Shown piece after piece: positions 1,663-59,579 of a DNA stretch of 64,000 nt. Both the position numbers and the translations under genes were made by a program. Each line of letters opens with the position of its first letter. The first letter of the stretch is position 1. Under the pieces are notes generated by a model. That model was not told the origin of the DNA and did no database searches. It saw only the letters and a list, made by a program, of their open reading frames with translations. The stretch is from NCBI RefSeq assembly GCF_053078305.1, contig NZ_CP166879.1. One strand, given 5' to 3'.

Positions 1663-2529
<867 letters not shown>

Positions 2530-3897
2530 TTAATCGCAGGCAACGATCTTCATTGCCAGGCCGCCGCGAGAGGTTTCGCGGTACTTGGCGTTCATATCTT
2601 TACCTGTTTCGTACATGGTTTCGATAACTTTATCGAGGCAGACGCGCGGCTCGCTGGTACGGCGCAGCGCCATACGTGCGGCGTTCACCGCTTTTACTGC
2701 CGCAATGGCGTTACGCTCGATGCATGGCACCTGTACCTGTCCGGCGACCGGGTCACACGTCAGACCGAGGTTGTGCTCCATGGCGATTTCCGCCGCGATG
2801 CACACCTGCGCCGGGCTTGCACCTAACAGTTCTGCCAGACCAGCCGCCGCCATTGAGCACGCCACACCAACTTCACCCTGGCAACCCACTTCGGCACCAG
2901 AAATCGACGCGTTCATCTTATAAAGAGAACCAATGGCGCTGGCTACCAGCAGGTAACGAGCCAGTGAGTTAGCGTTCACTTCGCGGATAAACTTATCGTA
3001 GTACGCCAGCACTGCCGGGATAATCCCGCACGCACCGTTAGTCGGCGCAGTCACCACGCGACCGCCAGCAGCGTTCTCTTCGTTCACTGCCAGTGCAAAC
3101 ATGTTGATCCAGTCAACAACCGCCATCGGGTCAGTGGTGGTTTTATCCTGGCTGACCAGCATCCGGCGTAGTGCCGCAGCACGGCGTGGAACGCGCAGTT
3201 TGCCAGGCAACACGCCTTCGGTGGAAATACCGCGCTCAATACCGCCGCGCATGACTTCCCAGACGTTCGCCAGGTGCTGTTCCAGCTCTTCTTTGCTGTG
3301 CAGCGCCAGCTCGTTTTTCATCATCAGGCCAGAGAGTGACAGCCCGGTTTCCTGACAATGTTTTTGCAGATCGGCTGCTGAACTGTACGGATAAGGAACT
3401 TCAACCGGTGCGCTATCCTGCTGGCCAAAATGCTCTTCATCAACGATAAAGCCACCGCCAATAGAGTAGTAAGTCTGACTGTAAACGACTTTATCACCCG
3501 CCAGCGCGGTAATGCGCATACCGTTTTCATGCAGAGAAAGGTTGTCGGCATGGAAGTTCATGCACTGATCAACCGGGAACTCCACTTCATGCTGACCGTT
3601 TGCCAGCATCAGGCGACCATGAGTATTCACATCCTGAATAAAACCAGGGATGGAATCGATATCCACGGTATCCGGCAGGTTACCCGCCAGGCCCATAATA
3701 ATGGCGATATCAGTGTGGTGGCCTTTACCAGTCAGAGAGAGCGAGCCGTACACGTCAACCACCACGCGGGTCACGTCTTTAAGCTGGTTACGGGCAATCA
3801 GATCGTCGGTAAATTGTTTACCCGCTTTCATTGGTCCAACGGTATGAGAACTGGAAGGGCCAATGCCGATTTTGAAAATATCGAATACGCTAATCAT
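2530..3897 (-). CDS. sdaB: L-serine dehydratase 2
   Basis: 455 aa ORF, Fe-S L-serine dehydratase family, downstream of sdaC. Confidence 0.9.
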   Translation of the reverse strand: MISVFDIFKIGIGPSSSHTVGPMKAGKQFTDDLIARNQLKDVTRVVVDVYGSLSLTGKGHHTDIAIIMGLAGNLPDTVDIDSIPGFIQDVNTHGRLMLANGQHEVEFPVDQCMNFHADNLSLHENGMRITALAGDKVVYSQTYYSIGGGFIVDEEHFGQQDSAPVEVPYPYSSAADLQKHCQETGLSLSGLMMKNELALHSKEELEQHLANVWEVMRGGIERGISTEGVLPGKLRVPRRAAALRRMLVSQDKTTTDPMAVVDWINMFALAVNEENAAGGRVVTAPTNGACGIIPAVLAYYDKFIREVNANSLARYLLVASAIGSLYKMNASISGAEVGCQGEVGVACSMAAAGLAELLGASPAQVCIAAEIAMEHNLGLTCDPVAGQVQVPCIERNAIAAVKAVNAARMALRRTSEPRVCLDKVIETMYETGKDMNAKYRETSRGGLAMKIVACD

Positions 3898-30635: not shown

Positions 30636-31307
30636 ATGCAGTACCCGATTAACGAGATGTTCCAGACCCTGCAAGGTGAGGGTTACTTTACCGGCGTCCC
30701 CGCCATTTTTATTCGTTTACAGGGATGCCCGGTTGGCTGTGCCTGGTGCGACACCAAACACACCTGGGAAAAGCTTGAGGATCGGGAAGTCTCCCTTTTC
30801 AGCATTCTGGCGAAGACCAAAGAGAGTGATAAGTGGGGGGCGGCGAGCAGTGAAGACTTGCTGGCTGTCATTGGTCGCCAGGGATATACCGCGCGGCATG
30901 TGGTGATTACGGGTGGTGAGCCTTGCATTCATGATTTGCTGCCACTGACTGACCTGCTCGAAAAGAACGGTTTTAGCTGCCAGATCGAAACCAGTGGTAC
31001 TCATGAGGTACGCTGCACACCGAATACCTGGGTTACCGTATCGCCAAAGCTGAACATGCGCGGCGGCTATGAAGTGTTGTCACAGGCACTGGAGCGAGCC
31101 AACGAAATCAAGCATCCAGTGGGGCGCGTACGTGATATTGAAGCACTGGATGAACTTTTGGCGACGCTGACCGATGATAAACCGCGAGTCATTGCTCTGC
31201 AGCCGATTAGCCAAAAGGATGATGCCACACGTTTGTGCATTGAAACCTGCATTGCGCGTAATTGGCGTTTGTCGATGCAAACCCATAAATATTTAAATAT
31301 TGCCTGA
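30636..31307 (+). CDS. queE: 7-carboxy-7-deazaguanine synthase (radical SAM)
   Basis: 223 aa with CxxxCxxC-type motif (CPVGCAWC). Confidence 0.88.
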   Translation: MQYPINEMFQTLQGEGYFTGVPAIFIRLQGCPVGCAWCDTKHTWEKLEDREVSLFSILAKTKESDKWGAASSEDLLAVIGRQGYTARHVVITGGEPCIHDLLPLTDLLEKNGFSCQIETSGTHEVRCTPNTWVTVSPKLNMRGGYEVLSQALERANEIKHPVGRVRDIEALDELLATLTDDKPRVIALQPISQKDDATRLCIETCIARNWRLSMQTHKYLNIA

Positions 31308-31499
31308 TTAAACATTTATAAGCGTTATAAATGGGTGGAACCTGTAAAGACTTCTACTCATTTATATTCTTTGTCGTCTCTGAAAAACCTCCATTTTGCC
31401 CATCCTGAACTAATCATTATCATTCTCTACAAATTCTGTGGCGTTAATTTTTCACTGGAGTGAAAATTATTGCGGTAAAGTTTGGTAGATTTTAGTTTG

Positions 31500-31645
31500 T
31501 ATAGAGTTATTTTAAATATTTACCTTTTTAATCAATGGGTTAAGTGCTCTTTAACATAATGGATGTGTTGTTTGTGTGATACTGTAAAGTTGGTAGATTG
31601 TGACTGGCTTAAAAAATCATTAATTAATAATAGGTTATGTTTAGA
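31500..31645 (+). promoter_or_regulatory. CRISPR leader for array 2
   Basis: AT-rich; contains AGTTGGTAGATTGT motif 44 nt upstream of first repeat, shared with the cas-adjacent leader. Confidence 0.8.
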
Positions 31646-32528
31646 GAGTTCCCCGCGCTAGCGGGGATAAACCGTAATGAGTCAGGGGAATACCGAATAT
31701 TTTATAGAGTTCCCCGCGCTAGCGGGGATAAACCGAAATTTATCGAGATCGGCAGGGGTTACTGACAGAGTTCCCCGCGCTAGCGGGGATAAACCGGCCG
31801 TTAATCCGGACTGCCAGCGAATAACGCTGAGTTCCCCGCGCTAGCGGGGATAAACCGCAACATATTTAAACGATTTAAGCCAGGCATATGAGTTCCCCGC
31901 GCTAGCGGGGATAAACCGGGATTCATCACGCGGTTATCCGGGGGCCGTTAGAGTTCCCCGCGCTAGCGGGGATAAACCGGTGGTTGCGGGGTTATCGGTG
32001 GTAGTCACAATGAGTTCCCCGCGCTAGCGGGGATAAACCGCTCCAGCTCGATATCACACGACGCTATATCAGGAGTTCCCCGCGCTAGCGGGGATAAACC
32101 GGAAACAGCGCCCGCCGGTGCTGCGTTACCGTGGAGTTCCCCGCGCTAGCGGGGATAAACCGCCAACAAACTCATTTGCACTGGATTCGTGGATGAGTTC
32201 CCCGCGCTAGCGGGGATAAACCGACCGGCGCAATTGTTTTTCAGCAGCACCCGGCGAGTTCCCCGCGCTAGCGGGGATAAACCGTATTTTCTTTGTTGCG
32301 GTAGGCAATATCGCCAGAGTTCCCCGCGCTAGCGGGGATAAACCGGTATTTTGTCACGACCAGCACGAGGCCGAATAGAGTTCCCCGCGCCAGCGGGGAT
32401 AAACCGCCCCAACTCATGCCCACATGAAAAACGTTGACGAGTTCCCCGCGCCAGCGGGGATAAACCGCCGCAAAAGGTATTATTTTTATCCGTCAGTACG
32501 AGTTCCCCGCGCCAGCGGGGATAAACCA
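31646..32528 (+). CRISPR. CRISPR array, 15 repeats of 29 bp, 14 spacers of 32 bp (type I-E repeat)
   Basis: Exact 61-bp periodicity; 12 repeats GAGTTCCCCGCGCTAGCGGGGATAAACCG then 3 leader-distal repeats with CCAGCG loop; terminal repeat ends ...AACCA. Confidence 0.97.
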
Positions 32529-32996
32529 CCATATAACCCGTTATCTCTTTCTCAAGTTTTTATATTAGCTGTACTTGTAATAAGCAACATATCCACGTAA
32601 CACCTCATGTTCAAAATAGTTCCCCATGCCAGATAAGTTCACAATTATCGATACAAAAAATCAAATTTAATCAAAGTGTTATTTGTATAATCCTTAAACC
32701 GTTAAGAAATTTTAATATATTATTTTTTTAATATTAATTAATGCCTGTTAATTTTTTCTTTAGAATAACAGTGTATTTTTTAAGCTTGTTATTCATTGAT
32801 TAAGTAATAAATCTGGAAATTTGTCTTTGTTTTGAGGCTAATGAGTGGTTTTACATAACCGCCTCTATACGCTGTTGATGAATAGTTCTTATGAATAAAG
32901 ATATCCTGTTCATACTTTAAGTGAAAATTGATAAAGTGCGATTCGTATTGTCTTTTATTCTAAAGACATCGAGTGTAGTTAATATTCCTTGTAAAA

Positions 32997-33119
32997 ACAG
33001 GGATAAACCGAACTAGTTAAAGTTTTTATTATGTTCCCTGCATCAGCGGGGATAAACCGGACTTGTTATCATTTTTTAAGTTGTCGAACTTATGTTCCCC
33101 GCGCCAGCGGGGATAACCA
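32997..33119 (+). CRISPR. Vestigial CRISPR remnant (degenerate repeats)
   Basis: Partial repeat GGATAAACCG at 33001, ATGTTCCCTGCATCAGCGGGGATAAACCG at 33031-33059, ATGTTCCCCGCGCCAGCGGGGATAACC at 33092-33118; another fragment near 32617-32637. Confidence 0.7.
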
Positions 33120-33165
33120 TTCAGGTATGTTCAGGCCGGGCAGTTTCCCGCCCGGTTTTCCTCAC

Positions 33166-34644
33166 TTACGCATTCGACCAGCTCTGGATCGAATCCGCAT
33201 TCCCCAATTCCCCATGCATCACTTCATACGATTTTTTCAGAATCACATCAGTGTGTTTGGTTAAATCTTTGAAAATGCCTTTATTCATCGCGTCGTAGCG
33301 TTTGGCATTGCTCTCAACAGGCATAAAGATATCTTTCACGCGAACCATTTTATCGACAGCCGTTGCGTAATCCGGGTATAGCCCCAGACCTACCGCTGTA
33401 TTAATCGCTGCCCCCAGGCTTGCACAACCGTTAATGGCATTACGTCGTGCCGGAAGGTTGAACACGTCGGCAAAAATCTGCATAAACAGATCGCTGTTCG
33501 AACCGCCGCCAGTAATGATTACATGCTTCGCAAAGTGATTCATTTCATTACACATATTGTCGTAATTGTTCTTCAGCGTCAGCGCCACGCTTTCCAGTAT
33601 CGAACGATATATCCATGCGTAATCCATGCTGGAATCAAAGCCGATCATAATCCCACGTTTGTAGGGTTCCCACGGGTTGGTCAGCCAGTCCAGCACCGTC
33701 ATCAGACCATTACAGCCAGGCGGCACACAAGAAGCTTTTTTGTTGAGCAAATCTTCCGGTGAAAGATCCTGTGCTTTGGCATCCTGAATTAACGACTCGC
33801 CTAACATGTCGCGTAGCCAGCTCACCGTCCACATGCCTTTACGGATACCGTACCCTTCATACAGCAATGTTTCCGGAATAGAAGACATAATCGGCCAGTA
33901 CGCCACCGGATCTTTCGGCAGTGCTTTACCGTTCATCATCAGCGCGATGTAGGTGCCAAGAGAAATCACCGCCGTTTCATCATCCAGTAATCCGGCTCCC
34001 AGAGCTTCTACCGGTTTATCACTGGTGGTACAAACAACCGGCAGCCCTGACGGGAAATGTGTCGCCAGCGCGGCTTGAGGTGTGATCTGTCCAAGAACAG
34101 TGCCTGGCATTTGCACATCAAACAGCATATGACGGGGGATATTAAACTTCTCCATTACCGCAGCATCTTCGCTCCATGCCCAGCTCTTATAATCCACCGG
34201 CCACTGACCAAAATAGTTGGCGATATTGTCTTTAAACTCGCCGGTTAAGCGATGCGTCAGATAACCCGAAAAAGAGGTGACATATGCCACGTCAGGATTA
34301 GTGTGTTCGTAGGGACGCGTTACGCGTGCATCCTGCCAGCTAATCAACGGCGCAGCAGGCGTGCCATCGGCTTTCAATAACGCACGGCAGCAACGGATGG
34401 ATCCCAGACCAATACCGACAATATCTTCTTTATTCCCGGCAAACTGACTCATCAAATCGTGACCGGCAAAACATAATGATGCCCATAAATCGTCGTCAGG
34501 ATGTTCTGCAGTATCGGCATCTGGCGTGTGCATCGGCTGCAATAAACCTTTGCCTTCGCAAACCACGTTACCTTCCAGATCGTATATCACCACTTTTGTG
34601 CTCTGACTTCCGCCATCAATCCCTATGATGTATTTTTTCGACAT
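33166..34644 (-). CDS. ygcE: FGGY-family carbohydrate kinase
   Basis: 492 aa, FGGY sugar kinase N- and C-domains. Confidence 0.8.
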   Translation of the reverse strand: MSKKYIIGIDGGSQSTKVVIYDLEGNVVCEGKGLLQPMHTPDADTAEHPDDDLWASLCFAGHDLMSQFAGNKEDIVGIGLGSIRCCRALLKADGTPAAPLISWQDARVTRPYEHTNPDVAYVTSFSGYLTHRLTGEFKDNIANYFGQWPVDYKSWAWSEDAAVMEKFNIPRHMLFDVQMPGTVLGQITPQAALATHFPSGLPVVCTTSDKPVEALGAGLLDDETAVISLGTYIALMMNGKALPKDPVAYWPIMSSIPETLLYEGYGIRKGMWTVSWLRDMLGESLIQDAKAQDLSPEDLLNKKASCVPPGCNGLMTVLDWLTNPWEPYKRGIMIGFDSSMDYAWIYRSILESVALTLKNNYDNMCNEMNHFAKHVIITGGGSNSDLFMQIFADVFNLPARRNAINGCASLGAAINTAVGLGLYPDYATAVDKMVRVKDIFMPVESNAKRYDAMNKGIFKDLTKHTDVILKKSYEVMHGELGNADSIQSWSNA

Positions 34645-49223: not shown

Positions 49224-49376
49224 ATGCTGACAAAATATGCCCTTGTGGCAATCATCGTACTGTGTTGTACAGTACTGGGATTCACGCTGATGGTAGGCGA
49301 CTCGTTGTGTGAGTTGAGTATCAGAGAACGTGGTATGGAGTTTAAGGCTGTTCTCGCTTACGAATCGAAGAAGTAG
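49224..49376 (+). CDS. hokX: Hok/Gef-family type I toxin (probable hokX)
   Basis: 50-codon ORF, not in the ORF track because under 60 aa; hydrophobic N-terminal TM segment plus conserved Hok C-terminal pattern (LCEL..R...EF.A.LAYESK); followed by a hairpin. Confidence 0.65.
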
Positions 49377-49568: not shown

Positions 49569-52268
49569 ATGCGTAAATATCCTTTAAGTTTACTGAAGGA
49601 TAAAAATATTGTGACTTTCTTTGATTTCTGGGGAAAAACCCGACGCGACGAGAAAGAAGGGGGTGACGACTATCACCTTCTTTGCTGGCATTCGCTGGAT
49701 GTGGCCGCGATGGGCTATTTAATGGTTAAAAGAAATTGCTTCGGGCTGGCTGATTATTTTCGTCAATTAGGGATTTCTGACAAGGAACAGGCGGCTCAAT
49801 TTTTCGCCTGGTTGTTGTGCTGGCACGATATTGGAAAATTTGCCCGCTCATTTCAGCAACTTTACCTGCACCCACAACTCAAGGTTCTGGAAGGCGCAAG
49901 AAAGAATTACGAAAAGATCTCTCATTCAACGCTGGGCTACTGGTTGTGGCATCATTATTTAAGTGAATGCGAAGAATTGCTTCCTGCCTCTTCACTCTCT
50001 ACTCGCAAACTTAAACGTGTAATAGCGATGTGGATGCCCATGACTACCGGGCATCATGGTCGGCCCCCTGACCGTATTGATGAACTGGATAATTTTCTGC
50101 CTGAAGACAAAGCTGCCGCACGAGATTTTCTCCTTGAAATCAAGTCACTGTTTCCGCTCATAGAGATTCCCACATTCTGGGATGATGACGAGGGCGTTGA
50201 ACTTTTAAAACAACTTTCCTGGTATATCTCTGCAACAGTCGTACTCGCAGACTGGACGGGTTCGTCAACGCGATTTTTTCCACGCGTCGCACAGACAATG
50301 AATATTAAAGATTACTGGCAGAAAACTTTAGTTCAGGCTCAAAACGCCTTAACCGTCTTTCCTCCAAAAGCAGAAACCGCACCTTTCACCGGAATTAATA
50401 CGCTGTTTCCTTTTATTGAGCACCCGACACCATTACAGCAAAAGGTACTGGATCTGGATATCAGCCAGCCAGGGCCACAGTTATTTATTCTGGAAGATGT
50501 GACTGGCGCAGGTAAAACAGAAGCGGCGCTTATCCTGGCGCACAGGTTGATGGCTGAGAATAAAGCTCAGGGTTTGTTTTTTGGCCTGCCAACAATGGCA
50601 ACGGCCAATGCCATGTACGATCGGCTGGTCAAAACCTGGCTTGCTTTCTTTTCGCCAGAATCCCGCCCCAGCCTGGTGCTGGCACACAGCGCCCGTACAT
50701 TAATGGAACGCTTTAATGAATCACTCTGGTCCGGTGATTTAGTCGGGTCAGAAGAACCGGATGAACAAGCGTTCAGTCAAGGATGTGCAGCCTGGTTTGC
50801 CGACAGTAACAAGAAGGCTTTACTGGCTGAAATTGGCGTCGGCACGCTGGATCAGGCGATGATGGCAGTGATGCCGTTTAAACATAATAATCTGCGGCTT
50901 CTGGGGTTGAGTAACAAAATCCTGCTGGCTGATGAGATCCACGCCTGTGACGCTTACATGTCGTACATTCTTGAAGGGTTGATTGAGCGACAGGTGCGTG
51001 GCGGAAACAGCGTCATTTTGCTTTCTGCTACGTTATCTCAACAGCAGCGCGACAAACTTGTCGCCGCCTTTGCGCGTGGCACAGAGGGCCAGCAAGAAGC
51101 TCCGTTCCTGGAAAAGGATGATTACCCCTGGCTGACGCATGTCACGAAATCCGATGTGCATTCGCACCGGGTAGCGACGCGCAAAGACGTTGAGCGTAGC
51201 GTGAGCGTGGGTTGGCTTCATAGCGAACAAGAATGTATTGCGCGTATCGAATCAGCGGTAAGTCAGGGGAAATGCATCGCCTGGATCCGGAATTCTGTCG
51301 ATGACGCTATTAAGGTTTATCGTCAGTTACTTGCCCGCGGCGTCATTCCTGCTTCCAGCCTTTCACTTTTTCATAGCCGCTTTGCTTTTAGCGATCGCCA
51401 GCGAATTGAAACGGAAACGCTGGCACGCTTTGGTAAAAATTGTAGTTTAAAAAGATCATCTCAAGTCATTGTTTGTACACAAGTAATTGAGCAAAGTGTG
51501 GATATTGACCTGGACGAAATGATCTCCGACCTGGCCCCCATTGATTTGCTGATCCAGCGAGCGGGGCGATTACAACGGCATATTCGTGATATTAATGGTC
51601 AGTTAAAACGTGATGGAAAAGACGAGCGTTCCCCTCCTGAATTGCTGATTCTGGCCCCCGTCTGGGACGACTCTCCGGGTGACGAATGGTTTGGTAGTGC
51701 GATGCGTAACAGCGCATATGTCTACCCCGATCATGGGCGAATCTGGCTGACGCAGCGAGTATTGCGTGAGCAAGGCGCTATTCAGATGCCACACGCAGCC
51801 CGGCTTCTTATTGAATCCGTCTACGGTGAGGACGTGGTAATGCCGGAAGGATTTGCCCGCAGCGAGCAGGAGCAAGTGGGCAAATATTACTGCGATCGCG
51901 CAATGGCTAAAAAGTTTATGCTGAACTTCAGGCCCGGCTATGCCGCCAATATCAACGATTACCTCCCGGAAAAGCTGTCGACACGTCTGGCTGAAGAGTC
52001 TGTTTCCCTGTGGCTGGCTACCTGTATTGACGGTGTGGTGAAGCCTTATGCCAGCGGTGCTCACGCATGGGAAATGAGCGTTGCCAGAGTGCGTCGAAGC
52101 TGGTGGAAAAAACATCGGGATGAATTTTCTTTACTGGAAGGGGAAGCGTTCAGGCAGTGGTGCATTGAACAACGGCAAGATCCGGAGATGGCAAACGTGA
52201 TTTTAGTCACCGATGACGAAAGCTGCGGGTATTCGGCTACGGAAGGATTGATTGGCAAGGTTGATTGA
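49569..52268 (+). CDS. cas3: Cas3 HD nuclease / helicase (type I-E)
   Basis: 899 aa; HD motifs (HSLDVAA, HDIGK), Walker A (GAGKTEAA), DEAH-like box (LADEIHACD); preceded by AT-rich promoter region. Confidence 0.92.
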   Translation: MRKYPLSLLKDKNIVTFFDFWGKTRRDEKEGGDDYHLLCWHSLDVAAMGYLMVKRNCFGLADYFRQLGISDKEQAAQFFAWLLCWHDIGKFARSFQQLYLHPQLKVLEGARKNYEKISHSTLGYWLWHHYLSECEELLPASSLSTRKLKRVIAMWMPMTTGHHGRPPDRIDELDNFLPEDKAAARDFLLEIKSLFPLIEIPTFWDDDEGVELLKQLSWYISATVVLADWTGSSTRFFPRVAQTMNIKDYWQKTLVQAQNALTVFPPKAETAPFTGINTLFPFIEHPTPLQQKVLDLDISQPGPQLFILEDVTGAGKTEAALILAHRLMAENKAQGLFFGLPTMATANAMYDRLVKTWLAFFSPESRPSLVLAHSARTLMERFNESLWSGDLVGSEEPDEQAFSQGCAAWFADSNKKALLAEIGVGTLDQAMMAVMPFKHNNLRLLGLSNKILLADEIHACDAYMSYILEGLIERQVRGGNSVILLSATLSQQQRDKLVAAFARGTEGQQEAPFLEKDDYPWLTHVTKSDVHSHRVATRKDVERSVSVGWLHSEQECIARIESAVSQGKCIAWIRNSVDDAIKVYRQLLARGVIPASSLSLFHSRFAFSDRQRIETETLARFGKNCSLKRSSQVIVCTQVIEQSVDIDLDEMISDLAPIDLLIQRAGRLQRHIRDINGQLKRDGKDERSPPELLILAPVWDDSPGDEWFGSAMRNSAYVYPDHGRIWLTQRVLREQGAIQMPHAARLLIESVYGEDVVMPEGFARSEQEQVGKYYCDRAMAKKFMLNFRPGYAANINDYLPEKLSTRLAEESVSLWLATCIDGVVKPYASGAHAWEMSVARVRRSWWKKHRDEFSLLEGEAFRQWCIEQRQDPEMANVILVTDDESCGYSATEGLIGKVD

Positions 52269-52271
52269 GAT

Positions 52272-52323
52272 GCCCTGGCGTCGGATGACGCCAGGGCTTA
52301 TCCCCGCTGACGCGGGGAACAGG
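52272..52323. repeat. Perfect 11-bp hairpin followed by inverted orphan CRISPR-repeat-like sequence
   Basis: GCCCTGGCGTC-ggat-GACGCCAGGGC at 52272-52297; minus-strand reading of 52295-52323 is CCTGTTCCCCGCGTCAGCGGGGATAAGCC, 25 of 27 identical to the array repeat. Confidence 0.8.
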
Positions 52324-52718
52324 AACCAATTTTTGTATCTCACTAACTTGGTTAATCCCTAGAATCAGGGAATGGATTTATTTTATCAATGCTATTGTGA
52401 TTATGATAGATGGGTAATTGCTATGAGTTAATGAGAAACAAAAATTTTAAATAATGTCCGGATCCGGAGTTGAGTCACACCGTTACAAGGCGTATTTTCG
52501 TGACCGGTGAAAAGCTGCGGTGAAGAGGACTACGATGTTGTCGATTTTTTTGCTTCAACTTGTGCTAAGTCTGCTTTCAAAACGACAAACTAAGTTCGAT
52601 TTTCGTATCACATTCAACGTCTTTTCTTTTATCCGACTCAGATTAAGTCTCCAACTAAATCTGAAAATATGGTGATGGACAACCGACCAGGGATGGTCTT
52701 TTCTACGAGAGGATGCGT

Positions 52719-54281
52719 ATGAACTCGTTTTCACTTCTGACAACCCCGTGGTTGCCCGTTCGTTTTAAAGACGGAACGACAGGCAAACTGGCGCCAGTCG
52801 ATCTGGCTGATGAAAATGTTGTCGATATCGCTGCGCCACGAGCAGATCTCCAGGGAGCAGCATGGCAGTTTTTACTGGGGCTACTACAAACCAGTTTCGC
52901 GCCCAAAAATCATGGTCGTTGGGATGATATCTGGCAAGACGGACTGGAAGCCGAAAAGCTACGGGAAGCATTGCTGTCTTTAGAACATGCTTTCCAGTTT
53001 GGGCCAGATTCCCCTTCATTTATGCAGGATTTCGAGGCGCTCACGGGAGATAAAGTTCAGGTTGCTTCATTACTGCCTGAGATTCCCGGCGCTCAAACAA
53101 CGAAGTTTAATAAAGACCACTTTATTAAGCGTGGCGTGACTGAACACGTATGCCCTCATTGTTCCGCGTTAGCTCTGTTCTCCCTACAGTTAAATGCACC
53201 GTCAGGCGGCAAAGGCTACCGAACCGGTTTACGCGGCGGTGGGCCGATGACGACTCTGATTGAATTGCAGGAGTATCAGGGCAATCAACAAGCCCCCTTG
53301 TGGCGCAAACTGTGGCTCAACGTGATGCCGCAGGATGAAGCCGACTTACCGCTACCCAAAAAATTTGACGATCTGGTTTTCCCCTGGCTTGGCCCGACGC
53401 GTACCAGCGAACTGGCCGGTGCGGTGGTAACCGATGATCAGGTCAATAAACTCCAGGCGTACTGGGGAATGCCGCGGCGTATTCGTATTGATTTTAATAC
53501 CACGACAGTCGGCAACTGCGATATTTGCGGTGAGCAGGACGACGCGCTTCTGAGCCTGATGACGACCAAAAATTACGGTGCGAATTATGCCATGTGGCAG
53601 CATCCATTAACGCCTTACCGTGTACCACTTAAAGAGGGTGGCGAGTTTTACTCAGTTAAACCACAACCAGGCGGTTTAATTTGGCGCGACTGGTTAGGCC
53701 TTATCGAAACGGGTAAGTCAGAAAACAATACGGAACTTCCCGCTCTGGTGGTGAAACTCTTTAATGCCAGCAGTCTCAAGCAGGCAAAAGTAGGCCTATG
53801 GGGATTTGGCTATGATTTCGACAACATGAAAGCCCGCTGTTGGTACGAACACCGTTTCCCGCTGCTGCTCAATAAAAAAGAAGGCCAGATACCGAAACTG
53901 CGGCTGGCTGCGCAAACGGCTTCACGCATTCTAAGTCTGTTACGGAGTGCATTGAAAGAAGCATGGTTCTCCGATCCAAAAGGTGCACGGGGTGATTTCA
54001 GTTTTGTGGATATCGACTTCTGGAACAAAACTCAGCATCGCTTCCTGAGGTTAGTGCGCCAAATTGAAGAAGGTCAGGATGCGGATGAATTACTCAGCAA
54101 ATGGAATAAGGAGATTTGGTTATTCTCGCGTCAGGATTTTGACGAGCGTGTATTCACCAATCCTTATGAGCCCGTTGATTTAAAACGCGTCATGACCGCG
54201 CGCAAAAAATATTTTACAACATCGGCGGAGAAGCAAAATGCTAAAGCCGCCAGGGAGAAAAAGCAGGAGGCTGCTGAATGA
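52719..54281 (+). CDS. cse1: Cse1/CasA (Cas8e), Cascade large subunit
   Basis: About 520 aa first gene of Cascade operon; ATG 52719 has better RBS spacing than 52713; position between cas3 and cse2. Confidence 0.85.
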   Translation: MNSFSLLTTPWLPVRFKDGTTGKLAPVDLADENVVDIAAPRADLQGAAWQFLLGLLQTSFAPKNHGRWDDIWQDGLEAEKLREALLSLEHAFQFGPDSPSFMQDFEALTGDKVQVASLLPEIPGAQTTKFNKDHFIKRGVTEHVCPHCSALALFSLQLNAPSGGKGYRTGLRGGGPMTTLIELQEYQGNQQAPLWRKLWLNVMPQDEADLPLPKKFDDLVFPWLGPTRTSELAGAVVTDDQVNKLQAYWGMPRRIRIDFNTTTVGNCDICGEQDDALLSLMTTKNYGANYAMWQHPLTPYRVPLKEGGEFYSVKPQPGGLIWRDWLGLIETGKSENNTELPALVVKLFNASSLKQAKVGLWGFGYDFDNMKARCWYEHRFPLLLNKKEGQIPKLRLAAQTASRILSLLRSALKEAWFSDPKGARGDFSFVDIDFWNKTQHRFLRLVRQIEEGQDADELLSKWNKEIWLFSRQDFDERVFTNPYEPVDLKRVMTARKKYFTTSAEKQNAKAAREKKQEAAE

Positions 54282-54814
54282 GTATTGTAAAAGAGGAGCA
54301 CAAAGCCACGCTGCGTAAATGGCACGAAGAGTTGCAGGCTAAACGCGGCAATCGTGCCAGTCTGCGGCGTAGCACAACGGTTAATGATGTTTGCTTGTCA
54401 GAAGGGTTTCGTTCTCTGCTGATGCAGACCCACACTTTGTGGAAAATTGAAGCACAAGAGTGGCGTTTTACCGCACTGGCGCTGGTCGCCGCAGTTAGCG
54501 CCAATGTAAAAGCCATTGATGAACGGCAGCCTTTTGCCGCGCAGCTGGCGGCGGTAATGTCGGAGGGGCGTTTTACTCGCCTGTCGGCAGTAAAAACGCC
54601 GGATGATTTACTGCGTCAGTTACGTCGCGCGGTCAAATTATTAAACGGTTCCGTCAATCTTATCTCTTTGGCAGAAGATATTTTCCGCTGGTGCCAGGAG
54701 AGCGACGACCTGCTCAATCATCACCGCCGCCAGCAGCGGCCAACCGAATTTATCCGTATCCGCTGGGCACTGGAATATTACCAGGCTGGCGACGCCGATA
54801 ACGAACAAAATTAA
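54278..54814 (+). CDS. cse2: Cse2/CasB, Cascade small subunit
   Basis: 178 aa; ATGA overlap with cse1. Confidence 0.85.
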   Translation: MSIVKEEHKATLRKWHEELQAKRGNRASLRRSTTVNDVCLSEGFRSLLMQTHTLWKIEAQEWRFTALALVAAVSANVKAIDERQPFAAQLAAVMSEGRFTRLSAVKTPDDLLRQLRRAVKLLNGSVNLISLAEDIFRWCQESDDLLNHHRRQQRPTEFIRIRWALEYYQAGDADNEQN

Positions 54815-54828
54815 TAAAGGACTATCTC

Positions 54829-55884
54829 ATGACAACATTTATTCAGCTTCATTTGTTAACCGCTTACCCTGCTGCCAACCTTAACCGTGATGATACTGGT
54901 GCGCCAAAAACTGTGGTACTGGGTGGTGCAACGCGTCTGCGCGTTTCCTCACAAAGTCTGAAACGTGCGTGGCGCACTTCTGCACTTTTTGAACAGGCAC
55001 TGGCGGGCCATATTGGTATTCGCAGTGGGCGAATTGCGCGTGAGGCGGCAACTATCCTGATTGAGAAAGGAATCGAAGAGAAAAAAGCCATCGAATGGGC
55101 GGCAAAAATTGCGGATTATCTTGGGAAAGCTAAAAACGACAAAAAACCAAAAGATCCGCTCACTAACGCCGAAACTGAACAATTAGTTCATATCAGCCCG
55201 GCAGAATTTGACGCCGTAAAAGCGCTGGCCCATCAACTGGCAGAAGAAAAGCGCGCGCCAAAAGAGGAAGATCTCGCGTTGTTACGTAAAGACCGTATAG
55301 CGGTAGATATCGCTATGTTTGGTCGTATGCTGGCGAATAAACCTGAGTTTAATGTTGAAGCCGCCTGCCAGGTCGCGCATGCGTTTGGTGTCAGTGAAAC
55401 GATTGTCGAAGATGATTTTTTCACCGCCGTTGATGATTTGCGCCAGGCCTCTGAAGATGCCGGTGCCGGGCATCTCGGAGAAACCGGATTCGGTTCAGCA
55501 CTTTTCTACACCTATATCTGCATTGATAAAGATCTGCTGGTAGAAAACCTCGGCGGTGACGAAGCGTTAGCTAATCAGACCATACGCGCTTTTACGGAAG
55601 CCGCGCTTAAAGTTTCCCCAACCGGTAAACAAAATAGCTTTGCCAGCCGTGCCTACGCCTCCTGGGCGCTGGCGGAAAAAGGCACTGATCAACCGCGTTC
55701 TCTGGCGGCGGCTTTCTATGAACCCATTAATGGTACCCGTCAGTTAGATGTGGCGGTGCAGCGTATTACAACGCTTCGCGAAAACATGAATACGGTCTAC
55801 GAACAGAAGACTGAATGCGCAAGTTTTGACGTGATGAACAAACAGGGAAGCATGAAGGACGTACTGGACTTTATCTGCGCGTAA
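54829..55884 (+). CDS. cas7: Cas7e/CasC, Cascade backbone subunit
   Basis: 351 aa with LNRDD...RVSSQSLKRA N-terminal signature recalled from CasC. Confidence 0.88.
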   Translation: MTTFIQLHLLTAYPAANLNRDDTGAPKTVVLGGATRLRVSSQSLKRAWRTSALFEQALAGHIGIRSGRIAREAATILIEKGIEEKKAIEWAAKIADYLGKAKNDKKPKDPLTNAETEQLVHISPAEFDAVKALAHQLAEEKRAPKEEDLALLRKDRIAVDIAMFGRMLANKPEFNVEAACQVAHAFGVSETIVEDDFFTAVDDLRQASEDAGAGHLGETGFGSALFYTYICIDKDLLVENLGGDEALANQTIRAFTEAALKVSPTGKQNSFASRAYASWALAEKGTDQPRSLAAAFYEPINGTRQLDVAVQRITTLRENMNTVYEQKTECASFDVMNKQGSMKDVLDFICA

Positions 55885-55894
55885 GGGGCGGCTT

Positions 55895-56641
55895 ATGAGC
55901 CAATATCTGATTTTTCAGCTTCATGGGCCAATGGCATCCTGGGGCGTCGATGCCCCCGGCGAAGTGCGTCATACCCATGAACTGCCTTCGCGCTCAGCAT
56001 TGCTGGGTCTGCTGGCTGCCGGGGTAGGGATTCGGCGTGATGATACCGAACGCTTAAACGCGTTTAATCGCCACTATTCACTGGTGGTTTGCGCCAGCCG
56101 TAACCCGCGCTGGGCACGGGATTATCACACGATCCAGATGCCAAAAGAGGTGCGCAAAGCGCGTTATTTCAGCCGTCGCGAAGAGTTGAGCGACTCTGAT
56201 CTTCTGAGCGCGATTATCTCCCGGCGCGACTACTACACCGACGCCTGGTGGATGGTGGCGGTGGCAACAACAGCCGATGCGCCTTACAGCCTCGAACAGT
56301 TGCAGGGCGGTTTACGCCATCCAGTTTTTCCTCTTTATCTGGGGCGAAAAAGTCATCCGCTGGCATTACCACTTGCGCCGTTACTGCTCGAAGGCAACGC
56401 GTCTGATGTTTTACGTAACGCATACCAACAGTATCAGGATCATTTCCACGACCTGAAAGTCTCACTCCCGAAACTTCAGGATGAATGCTGGTGGGAAGGG
56501 GAGCACGACGGCCTGGTCGTGAGCAAAATATTACGCCGCCGGGATGTTCCTTTAAATCGCCAGCAGTGGCTGTTTGGGGAACGCACCGTCAATCAGGGGC
56601 CGTGGCTCAGCAAGGAGGAACCATGTACCTCTCAAGAATAA
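55895..56641 (+). CDS. cas5: Cas5e/CasD
   Basis: 248 aa; N-terminal L.GPM..WG motif typical of Cas5e. Confidence 0.85.
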   Translation: MSQYLIFQLHGPMASWGVDAPGEVRHTHELPSRSALLGLLAAGVGIRRDDTERLNAFNRHYSLVVCASRNPRWARDYHTIQMPKEVRKARYFSRREELSDSDLLSAIISRRDYYTDAWWMVAVATTADAPYSLEQLQGGLRHPVFPLYLGRKSHPLALPLAPLLLEGNASDVLRNAYQQYQDHFHDLKVSLPKLQDECWWEGEHDGLVVSKILRRRDVPLNRQQWLFGERTVNQGPWLSKEEPCTSQE

Positions 56642-57269
56642 CCTTACATACCGCTCAGCTTTTGCCTGCGCAGTTGCTGCATCTGGTGGATCGCGGTGAA
56701 TATGTGATGCATCAGTGGCTGTGGGATCTCTTCCCTGGCGGCAAAGAAAGGCAATTTCTTTATCGTCGGGAGGAACTTCAGGGTGCGTTTCGCTTTTTTG
56801 TCCTCTCGCAGGAACGCCCGGCGGAAAGTGAAACTTTCACTATCGAATGCCGGTCATTTGCTCCGGAGCTGCGTACCGGACAATCCCTTTGTTTCAACCT
56901 GCGGGCGAATCCCACAATTTGTAAAGCGGGCAAGCGCCACGATCTGCTGATGGAGGCGAAACGGCAGGTGAGGGGACAGGCGGAAGGGCGTGATGTCTGG
57001 TTGCATCAACAACAGGCGGCGCTGGACTGGCTGGCAGCGCAGGGGGAGAGAAGCGGTTTTACACTGCTGGATACCTCGGTTGATGCCTACCGACAACAGC
57101 AACTGCGGCGGGAAAACTCCCGGCAACTGATCCAGTTCAGTAGCGTGGATTATACGGGGATGCTTACGGTCACCGATCCCGGGTTATTTCTGCAACGTCT
57201 CAGTCAGGGGTATGGCAAAAGCCGCGCGTTCGGCTGTGGTCTGATGCTGATCAAACCCGGAGCAGAGGT

Positions 57270-57273
<4 letters not shown>
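56623..57273 (+). CDS. cas6e: Cas6e/CasE, crRNA endoribonuclease
   Basis: ATG at 56623 after AGGAGG RBS, 216 aa starting MYLSRI...; overlaps cas5 end by 19 nt; ORF track shows only a longer upstream-extended frame. Confidence 0.85.
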
Positions 57274-58483
<1,210 letters not shown>

Positions 58484-58579
58484 GTTATGTGTTCTTTAAA
58501 AATAAGGAAATGTTTGAATTTAGTTGGTAGATTGTTGATGTGGAATAAATTTGTTTAAAAACAGATATGTATGCTTAGT
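58484..58579 (+). promoter_or_regulatory. CRISPR leader for array 1
   Basis: AT-rich, contains AGTTGGTAGATTGT at 58522-58535, 45 nt upstream of first repeat. Confidence 0.8.
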
Positions 58580-59579
58580 GTGTTCCCCGCGCCAGCGGGG
58601 ATAAACCGGGGGGGCAATAATATGTGCGGCGGATCACCAGGTGTTCCCCGCGCCAGCGGGGATAAACCGTCGGAAAAATGGCTGGCCTCAACGGTGAAAA
58701 CGTGTTCCCCGCGCCAGCGGGGATAAACCGCCAGGGTGAAACTTTTCGCTGACGTAAATAAAGTGTTCCCCGCGCCAGCGGGGATAAACCGACAATCACA
58801 TATACGACGCGAGACGGAGATCGGTGTTCCCCGCGCCAGCGGGGATAAACCGTGATGGGCGAATACAAGCGCTGGCGCAACGAGGTGTTCCCCGCGCCAG
58901 CGGGGATAAACCCGGCATTCTTAACCGGCGCAACAAGGGGGGCGCGTGTTCCCCGCGCCAGCGGGGATAAACCGGTTAACTCCAGGTGGCGCGGCAGTGT
59001 TCAGAAGTGTTCCCCGCGCCAGCGGGGATAAACCGTGCTCTCATTTGTGTCGGCATCACTCGCGTCGGTGTTCCCCGCGCCAGCGGGGATAAACCGTCTG
59101 CCGCGAGCTGGTCTACGCCTACGCCATGGTGTTCCCCGCGCCAGCGGGGATAAACCGACATATGCCACAACCAGGCGAAGAAAAGTGTTCCCCGCGCCAG
59201 CGGGGATAAACCGCCCGTCACCGACGCGCAGTGGCGCTACCGTGAGTGTTCCCCGCGCCAGCGGGGATAAACCGGTCGCTGGGTTATTTTGTGTTGTGGG
59301 GCGATCGTGTTCCCCGCGCCAGCGGGGATAAACCGCTCATATTCGGATTGATCGTGTGTTTCGGTTTGTGTTCCCCGCGCCAGCGGGGATAAACCTGCGT
59401 ATATCTGTTGATGCGCACGGCGTGGCGGGTGTTCCCCGCGCCAGCGGGGATAAACCGAATGATTTAATACCAGACGCAGAGTGCCACACGTGTTCCCCGC
59501 GCCAGCGGGGATAAACCGGGCGCACTGGATGCGATGATGGATATCACTTAGAATTCCCCGCCCCTGCGGTAGAACACCC
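58580..59579 (+). CRISPR. CRISPR array, 17 repeats (GTGTTCCCCGCGCCAGCGGGGATAAACCG), 16 spacers
   Basis: 61-bp periodicity except one 56-bp unit (27-nt spacer at 59158-59184); degenerate terminal repeat GAATTCCCCGCCCCTGCGGTAGAACACCC at 59551-59579. Confidence 0.97.

Follow-up and report, generated by a model that had tools for sequence, protein, structure and literature searches.

The array between queE and ygcE in the 64,000-nucleotide stretch analysed here (the window; contig NZ_CP166879.1) is very probably the CRISPR2 array of an Escherichia coli carrying the non-K-12 variant of the type I-E system, in which a C-to-T change in the repeat next to the leader was propagated by templated duplication. 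In the proposed mechanism, the array would be served in trans by a cas operon starting 17 kb downstream. A C-to-T transition at repeat position 14, the apex of the hairpin loop, would have arisen in the leader-proximal repeat while spacer 12 was the newest, Cas1-Cas2 would have inserted each new spacer at the leader-repeat junction with duplication of the first repeat, and later acquisitions would all have copied T, leaving a contiguous leader-anchored T run above an older C tail. Position 14, which lies between the inverted repeats that anchor Cas1-Cas2 and outside the stem and stem base read by Cas6e, would be effectively neutral in this scheme. The anatomy and polarity of the array, the junction that it shares with sister arrays and the continued growth of those sister lineages on T repeats can be read directly from the arrays. 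The window array is a real feature that an earlier note described correctly and interpreted in essentially the right way, and the phenomenon itself is already published.

Anatomy and setting of the CRISPR2 array

The locus comprises the following features, in window coordinates.

30636..31307, + strand: queE (ygcF), 223-aa open reading frame forming the upstream flank, named from the annotation of near-identical E. coli loci
31308..31645, + strand: CRISPR2 leader, AT-rich, ending ...CTGGCTTAAAAAATCATTAATTAATAATAGGTTATGTTTAGA, aligned to other E. coli CRISPR2 leaders
31646..32528, + strand: CRISPR2 (CRISPR2.3) array, 15 repeats and 14 spacers with an exact 61-bp period
31646..32345, + strand: run of 12 leader-proximal T repeats, loop GCTA (T at repeat position 14)
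32378..32528, + strand: trailer-end group of three repeats carrying the canonical GCCA loop; the 3' base of the final repeat is degenerate
33031..33120, + strand: degenerate two-repeat mini array resembling CRISPR2.2, adjoining the 3' end of ygcE, five mismatches in each repeat, 61-bp spacing
33166..34644, - strand: ygcE (FGGY-family kinase), 492-aa open reading frame forming the downstream flank, named from the annotation of matching loci

A mismatch-tolerant pattern scan combined with direct reading placed the repeat starts at 31646, 31707 and onward to 32500, every step being 61 bp. The 29-bp repeats 1 to 12 read GAGTTCCCCGCGCTAGCGGGGATAAACCG, with T at position 14, and repeats 13 and 14 read GAGTTCCCCGCGCCAGCGGGGATAAACCG, with C and not T at that position. 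C at position 14 recurs in repeat 15, which ends in CCA, with A replacing G, as is usual for a degenerate terminal repeat. Both the perfect 61-bp periodicity over 15 repeats and the division into 12 leader-proximal T (GCTA) and three leader-distal C (GCCA) repeats, as claimed in the earlier note, were thereby confirmed. All 15 repeats fall within one mismatch of the consensus G(A/T)GTTCCCCGCGCCAGCGGGGATAAACCG, and the spacers are 14 unique 32-mers. RNA folding predicts a hairpin with a 7-bp stem and a 4-nt loop, of which position 14 is the third base, and the predicted fold and energy (-15.1 kcal/mol) are equal for T and C repeats.

The polarity of the array follows from the leader, which precedes repeat 1, and from the degenerate terminal repeat, which closes the opposite end. 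The AT-rich leader matches other CRISPR2 leaders, in agreement with the claim that the array has a leader of its own and a defined orientation, and the queE and ygcE flanks proposed at the same time are upheld by the coordinates of the open reading frames and by how near-identical E. coli loci are annotated. The flanks are up to 99.3% identical to those of E. coli genomes in which the interval is annotated as CRISPR, and K-12 has the queE-CRISPR-ygcE arrangement too. The leader (338 bp from queE to repeat 1) is identical to that of strains PS10-3 and ET350 and shows up to about 14 differences over 341 aligned columns from the other E. coli CRISPR2 leaders examined, including K-12. The repeat, the 61-bp unit, the polarity from leader to terminal repeat, the queE-ygcE site, the cognate cas genes and the spacers of mobile-element origin together characterise a type I-E CRISPR array of Enterobacterales repeat cluster 2, and the locus is E. 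coli CRISPR2 (CRISPR2.3), already well known.

The exact array is absent from 5,426 complete E. coli genomes, where the best whole-array matches reach about 80% and cover repeats and flanks only. No spacer matches elsewhere within the window, an Rfam scan of 31000-33400 at the gathering threshold matched no family, and counts of sigma-70 and terminator consensus sites in the leader and array did not rise above those of shuffled sequences. The mini array at 33031-33120, with repeats ATGTTCCCTGCATCAGCGGGGATAAACCG and ATGTTCCCCGCGCCAGCGGGGATAACCAT around one spacer, lies about 500 bp past the main array. This remnant is also found in strain E400634 and corresponds to the CRISPR2.2 locus of the literature.

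Matches to mobile elements were found for two spacers, one on each side of the T/C junction.

31980..32011, + strand: spacer 6, flanked by T repeats, perfect match to a prophage tail-collar fiber gene, ATG PAM
32407..32438, + strand: spacer 13, matching the ImmA/IrrE metallopeptidase gene of phage vB_EcoM-705R4, ATG PAM

The protospacer of spacer 6 occurs in E. coli 40EC, in the context ..gcgATG immediately followed by GTGGTTGCGG.. Spacer 13 matches 447 E. coli genomes, in most of them within prophages. ATG is a functional PAM of type I-E systems, and its presence next to both protospacers supports genuine acquisition. For the other 12 spacers, the phage, plasmid and E. coli collections yielded no match. 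A protospacer search with the whole array against phages and plasmids returned spacer 13 as the sole phage match and nothing genuine in plasmids; further phage and plasmid rows were rejected as arrays mis-filed as phage or plasmid, or as weak chance matches.

Sister arrays and growth on the T repeat

Arrays were extracted from thirteen E. coli genomes carrying the T variant, and three of them proved to be related to the window array. Their spacer orders, numbered from the window and with the T/C junction marked by a slash, are as follows.

Window: 1-12 / 13 14
PapRG-06-5: 15 16 17 7 8 9 10 18 11 12 / 14
ECNB21-M121: 19 20 21 22 6 23 9 11 12 / 13 14
JX21CE8: 19 21 22 6 9 11 12 / 13 14

The junction is the same in all four arrays and falls directly after spacer 12. 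The old spacers are common to the four, the relatives keeping parts of window spacers 6-14. The spacers at the leader end are specific to each lineage and are flanked by T repeats, with a single exception, the C repeat on the leader side of spacer 19 in ECNB21-M121 and JX21CE8. Across the window and sister arrays, about 20 distinct spacers sit on T repeats. Five complete genomes have the tail with spacer 12 and spacer 14; all are T-bearing with the same junction, and two are without spacer 13. The window array has kept at least 11 acquisitions templated by T, and at least two more, represented by spacers 18 and 23 of its relatives, were lost.

Since private leader-end spacers stand on T repeats above a shared junction, the T repeat has served repeatedly as the template for real acquisitions. 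The comparison of spacers with other E. coli CRISPR2 arrays, which the earlier note had proposed as a check, thus revealed a shared tail and junction under different T-flanked leader-end spacers, and shows that T-templated duplication continued after the window and sister lineages split. The sister arrays agree with the proposal that a loop mutation in the leader-proximal repeat was propagated over about 11 later acquisitions (at least 11 being retained), and also with its corollary that the array stayed active, acquisition having gone on after the split.

A sequencing or assembly artefact in a repetitive region can practically be dismissed. Repetitive arrays are prone to mis-assembly, which is a general concern with nothing specific to this locus, and against it stand the exact 61-bp register, the uniqueness of the spacers and the recurrence of the same junction with 9 of the 14 spacers in independently sequenced complete genomes.

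One observation runs counter to simple duplication. In ECNB21-M121 (extracted locus 2014-2042) and JX21CE8 the first repeat carries C and repeats 2 onward carry T, which simple duplication does not predict. Over 340 bp, the leader of these two strains and that of the window differ at about 7 sites, which suggests either a back-mutation or the import of the leader and first repeat by recombination. Very-short-patch repair in E. coli acts in a CTAG context, and might in this way favour the reversion of T to C.

Loop variants in E. coli and other genera

The exact T-variant repeat occurs in a GAG background in 39 of 5,426 E. coli genomes and in a GTG background in 26. About 1% of the complete E. 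coli genomes have the T14 variant, which is spread over six or more array lineages unrelated to one another; at CRISPR2, leader-anchored T runs were seen on five or more unrelated tails. All T14 runs in the E. coli arrays examined are contiguous; in 12 of 14 arrays the run begins with repeat 1, and in the remaining two with repeat 2. Isolated internal T repeats with unaffected neighbours were seen at repeat 2 in O121 strain RM8352 and at repeat 6 of CRISPR2 in E400634.

Nine genomes carry T in both of their arrays. The cas-adjacent, GTG-type CRISPR1 of E400634 has a leader-anchored run of 9 T over 3 C repeats, and its CRISPR2 a single old T repeat (repeat 6/7). A transfer of T between arrays was considered for this strain and rejected, the single, old and internal T of CRISPR2 and the leader-anchored run of CRISPR1 looking independent.

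Scanning one genome per bacterial species for the T variant extended the pattern to other genera. Escherichia albertii NBRC 107761 has 8 T over 2 C repeats and Klebsiella grimontii 06D021 has 22 T over 1 C, both leader-anchored. Single or trailer-end T copies are present in Citrobacter, Pectobacterium, Serratia, Salmonella diarizonae, Leminorella and K. spallanzanii, and published surveys record the variant in Salmonella and Klebsiella.

These distributions bear on the idea that T spread through existing repeats by intra-array gene conversion, in a form of concerted evolution, and not by polar duplication. Such a process would account for T repeats that are not always leader-anchored, as in the single, interior or trailer-end copies of Pectobacterium, Serratia, Leminorella and K. 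spallanzanii. It predicts internal patches, however, and the runs in the 14 E. coli arrays are contiguous and anchored at repeat 1 or 2; the T flanks of new lineage-specific spacers (on the downstream side only for spacer 19) are unexpected under it, and the isolated T repeats of RM8352 and of E400634 CRISPR2 have not spread to their neighbours. We consider conversion very improbable, and polar duplication of a mutated first repeat remains the preferred reading.

Other loop positions vary as well, and their variants equal or exceed T14 in frequency. The loop variant GTCA (C13T) was found in 231 genomes of E. coli, any one of which may hold as many as 35 copies. In E. coli TKEC21-59 (extracted locus 2411-3293), 12 leader-end repeats with a GCCT loop (A15T) stand over three canonical or degenerate distal repeats. 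The second spacer of this array is identical to window spacer 4, and one spacer occurs twice in it, as the third and the fifth. The presence of spacer 4 in both arrays may reflect either independent uptake of the same protospacer or an exchange between arrays.

No leader haplotype specific to T was found among the T families when E. coli CRISPR2 leaders were compared, their leaders being as varied as those of C arrays. A single T origin spread by recombination, which was sought through such a haplotype, found no support in this comparison. The T variant may have had several origins in E. coli, or a single origin followed by recombinational spread; the differing tails, the varied leaders and the occurrence of T in both repeat backgrounds and many genera favour recurrence.

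Recombination could also have acted on the window array itself. It may be a chimera in which a T block (leader, T repeats and spacers) and a C tail came from two arrays and were joined within a repeat, so that the junction would mark a recombination joint and not the site where the mutation arose. That E. coli arrays do recombine or convert is clear from the C first repeat and distinct leader haplotype of ECNB21-M121 and JX21CE8, and the presence of T runs on at least five unrelated CRISPR2 tails and of window spacer 4 in the unrelated TKEC21-59 array points the same way. On the other hand, no parent bearing only C was seen, all five genomes with the spacer 12 and spacer 14 tail having T and the same junction, and no T-specific leader haplotype links the T families. 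We therefore judge a chimera unlikely. Even if it were one, the T run would need serial duplication somewhere, and the main conclusion would stand.

The recurrence of loop changes raises the further question of whether the variant is neutral. A loop U and other loop variants might be favoured or preferentially generated, through cytosine deamination in an extruded or single-stranded hairpin at integration, or through selection acting either on the processing of crRNA or on resistance to phage RNAs that mimic the repeat. The appearance of C14T in many genera and, within E. coli, on six or more unrelated array lineages would fit this, as would the C13T runs of up to 35 copies in 231 genomes. A census of 507 non-terminal repeats from 35 arrays, ascertained on position 14 and not on position 13, found that almost all variation falls on four positions, namely 13 and 14 in the loop, position 2 and the PAM-derived position 29. 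Each stem position had at most two variant runs, and nearly all loop changes were C-to-T. An unconstrained site would nevertheless vary most in any case, and the census was ascertained on position 14; moreover T is rare, and C has taken the place of T at the leader end of ECNB21-M121 and of several arrays from other genera. A non-neutral origin consequently seems to us improbable. In its broader form, namely that in the I-E repeat of enterobacteria the bases at the loop apex are a mutational hot spot or a selected site and not merely unconstrained, the proposal is a speculative one that we would not expect to hold. It starts from the observation that C-to-T at positions 13 and 14 and A-to-T at position 15 have independently captured the leader-proximal repeat in many E. 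coli lineages and several genera, and an effect of loop variants on competition with repeat-mimicking RNAs would be a further possible cause. In our reading position 14 is effectively neutral and the T variant an ordinary recurrent polymorphism.

The cas operon, crRNA processing and known systems

The cas genes and the second array lie further downstream in the window.

49569..58483, + strand: type I-E cas operon, non-K-12 variant, with cas3, casA, casB, cas7, cas5, cas6e, cas1 and cas2
58484-58579: CRISPR1 leader, 96 bp, different from the CRISPR2 leader
58580..59518, + strand: cas-adjacent CRISPR1 array, 16 GTG-type repeats, all GCCA (C at position 14)

The eight cas open reading frames are intact and colinear with the annotated operon of JX21CE8, and the operon DNA is 99.8% identical to that of ECNB21-M121, JX21CE8 and 23CRST027/031. 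Cas6e has 216 aa and 28% identity to K-12 CasE. The distance from the end of the CRISPR2 array to the start of cas3 (49569) is 17.0 kb; the figure of 26 kb from the cas operon given in the earlier note does not apply to cas3 and is correct only for the end of cas2 or the cas-adjacent array (58483/58580).

CRISPR1 shares four trailer-end spacers with JX21CE8, and ten of its spacers lie between the leader and the first of those shared. It contains one 56-bp unit (59129-59213), in which spacer 10 (59158-59184) measures 27 nt and not 32, and its repeats at 58885 and 59368 have a variant last base (C and T, respectively). The CRISPR2 leader (compared over 31526-31645) and the cas-adjacent leader (58484-58579) are of different types, with only a AGTTGGTAGATTGT block in common. 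The queE-side leader is paired with GAG repeats and the cas-adjacent leader with GTG repeats, and both arrays have grown.

The contrast between GAG and GTG repeat starts noticed earlier is present in the scan and restates a published dimorphism. Diez-Villasenor et al. (2013) described an A/T dimorphism (CRISPR-A and CRISPR-T) that affects the second base of the repeat in E. coli I-E arrays, and found that cas-adjacent leaders occur in types matching it. Their naming refers to the opposite strand, so that GTG repeats are type A and GAG repeats type T, which accounts for the two arrays of the window. This dimorphism sits at repeat position 2, whereas the T/C split of the window array sits in the loop.

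Evidence on the loop comes from both adaptation and processing. Substitutions between the inverted repeats cut adaptation by at most 3-fold, compared with about 100-fold when the inverted repeats, which are essential, were altered (Goren et al. 2016, PMC5039180), and Cas6e-type enzymes recognise the major groove of the stem and the backbone near the cleavage site (PMC3902920). Because our literature search found no paper with direct mutagenesis of the loop for Cas6e, the case for tolerance is built on this recognition mode and on natural variation. Given the unchanged predicted fold, the recognition mode and the existence of nearly all-variant arrays such as that of K. grimontii, Cas6e likely tolerates the GCUA loop. 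Naive adaptation requires only Cas1-Cas2, so that array growth is no proof of crRNA processing, and we infer the transcription, Cas6e processing and interference of T-variant crRNAs. The I-E systems of E. coli are normally silenced by H-NS.

The closest well-known counterpart is CRISPR2 (CRISPR-II) of K-12 MG1655, which resembles the window array in site, flanks, repeat family, 32-nt spacers, degenerate terminal repeat and nearby remnant; its leader is similar, and it is also served in trans by the iap-side I-E cas operon (Touchon and Rocha 2010; Diez-Villasenor et al. 2013). The two differ in their spacers, in the divergent K-12-type cas genes and in the lack of T14 repeats in K-12, and the repeat starts are reversed, K-12 having GTG in CRISPR2 and GAG in CRISPR1. 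The architecture of a variant run over a canonical tail recurs in E400634 CRISPR1, E. albertii, K. grimontii and TKEC21-59, with other spacers, species or arrays, the variant of TKEC21-59 being at loop position 15 and that of the window at 14. Touchon and Rocha (2010, PLoS One) had already argued from 'stretches of conserved repeat variants' in Escherichia and Salmonella arrays that a new repeat copies the adjacent one. Their Table S6 lists for Salmonella Schwarzengrund the CGCTAGCG variant once, together with a run of a position-13 variant; the run of the window, in contrast, is at position 14 and in E. coli CRISPR2.

The array is thus a clean natural illustration of the established rule that the first repeat serves as template, and has little import beyond the strain. 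It documents that a wild lineage of E. coli whose I-E system is of the non-K-12 variant kept acquiring spacers at both arrays. The natural loop variants GCCA, GCUA, GUCA and GCCU mark freely variable positions, of use for repeat design in synthetic arrays and for strain typing.

Several minor features were observed around cas3. A mini array antisense to the cas genes occupies the cas3-casA intergenic region (52294-52374, minus strand). In it a 26-nt segment resembling a spacer (52323-52348) separates a degenerate repeat (52350-52374) from the repeat-like hairpin CTGTTCCCCGCGTCAGCGGGGATAAGCCC (52294-52322). Its spacer matches 52426-52446 (target 52423-52446, + strand) at positions 1-21 except 6 and 12, and the target adjoins an ATG PAM about 270 bp upstream of casA. 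By its sequence, this putative element fits the CreR or regulatory mini-array class (Shmakov 2023; Liu 2023). K-12 and Citrobacter amalonaticus have an equivalent inverted repeat after cas3, and in K-12 the stem is compensatorily changed to CCCTAC/GTAGGG. A hairpin with a perfect 11-bp stem, GCCCTGGCGTC GGAT GACGCCAGGGC (52272-52297), begins 3 nt past the cas3 stop and abuts the inverted repeat; it could be the cas3 terminator or a REP-like element. Finally, a Hok/Gef-family toxin gene, annotated between cysH and cas3 in the closest relative, is placed by colinearity at about 49224-49376, and K-12 carries sokX at the equivalent position.
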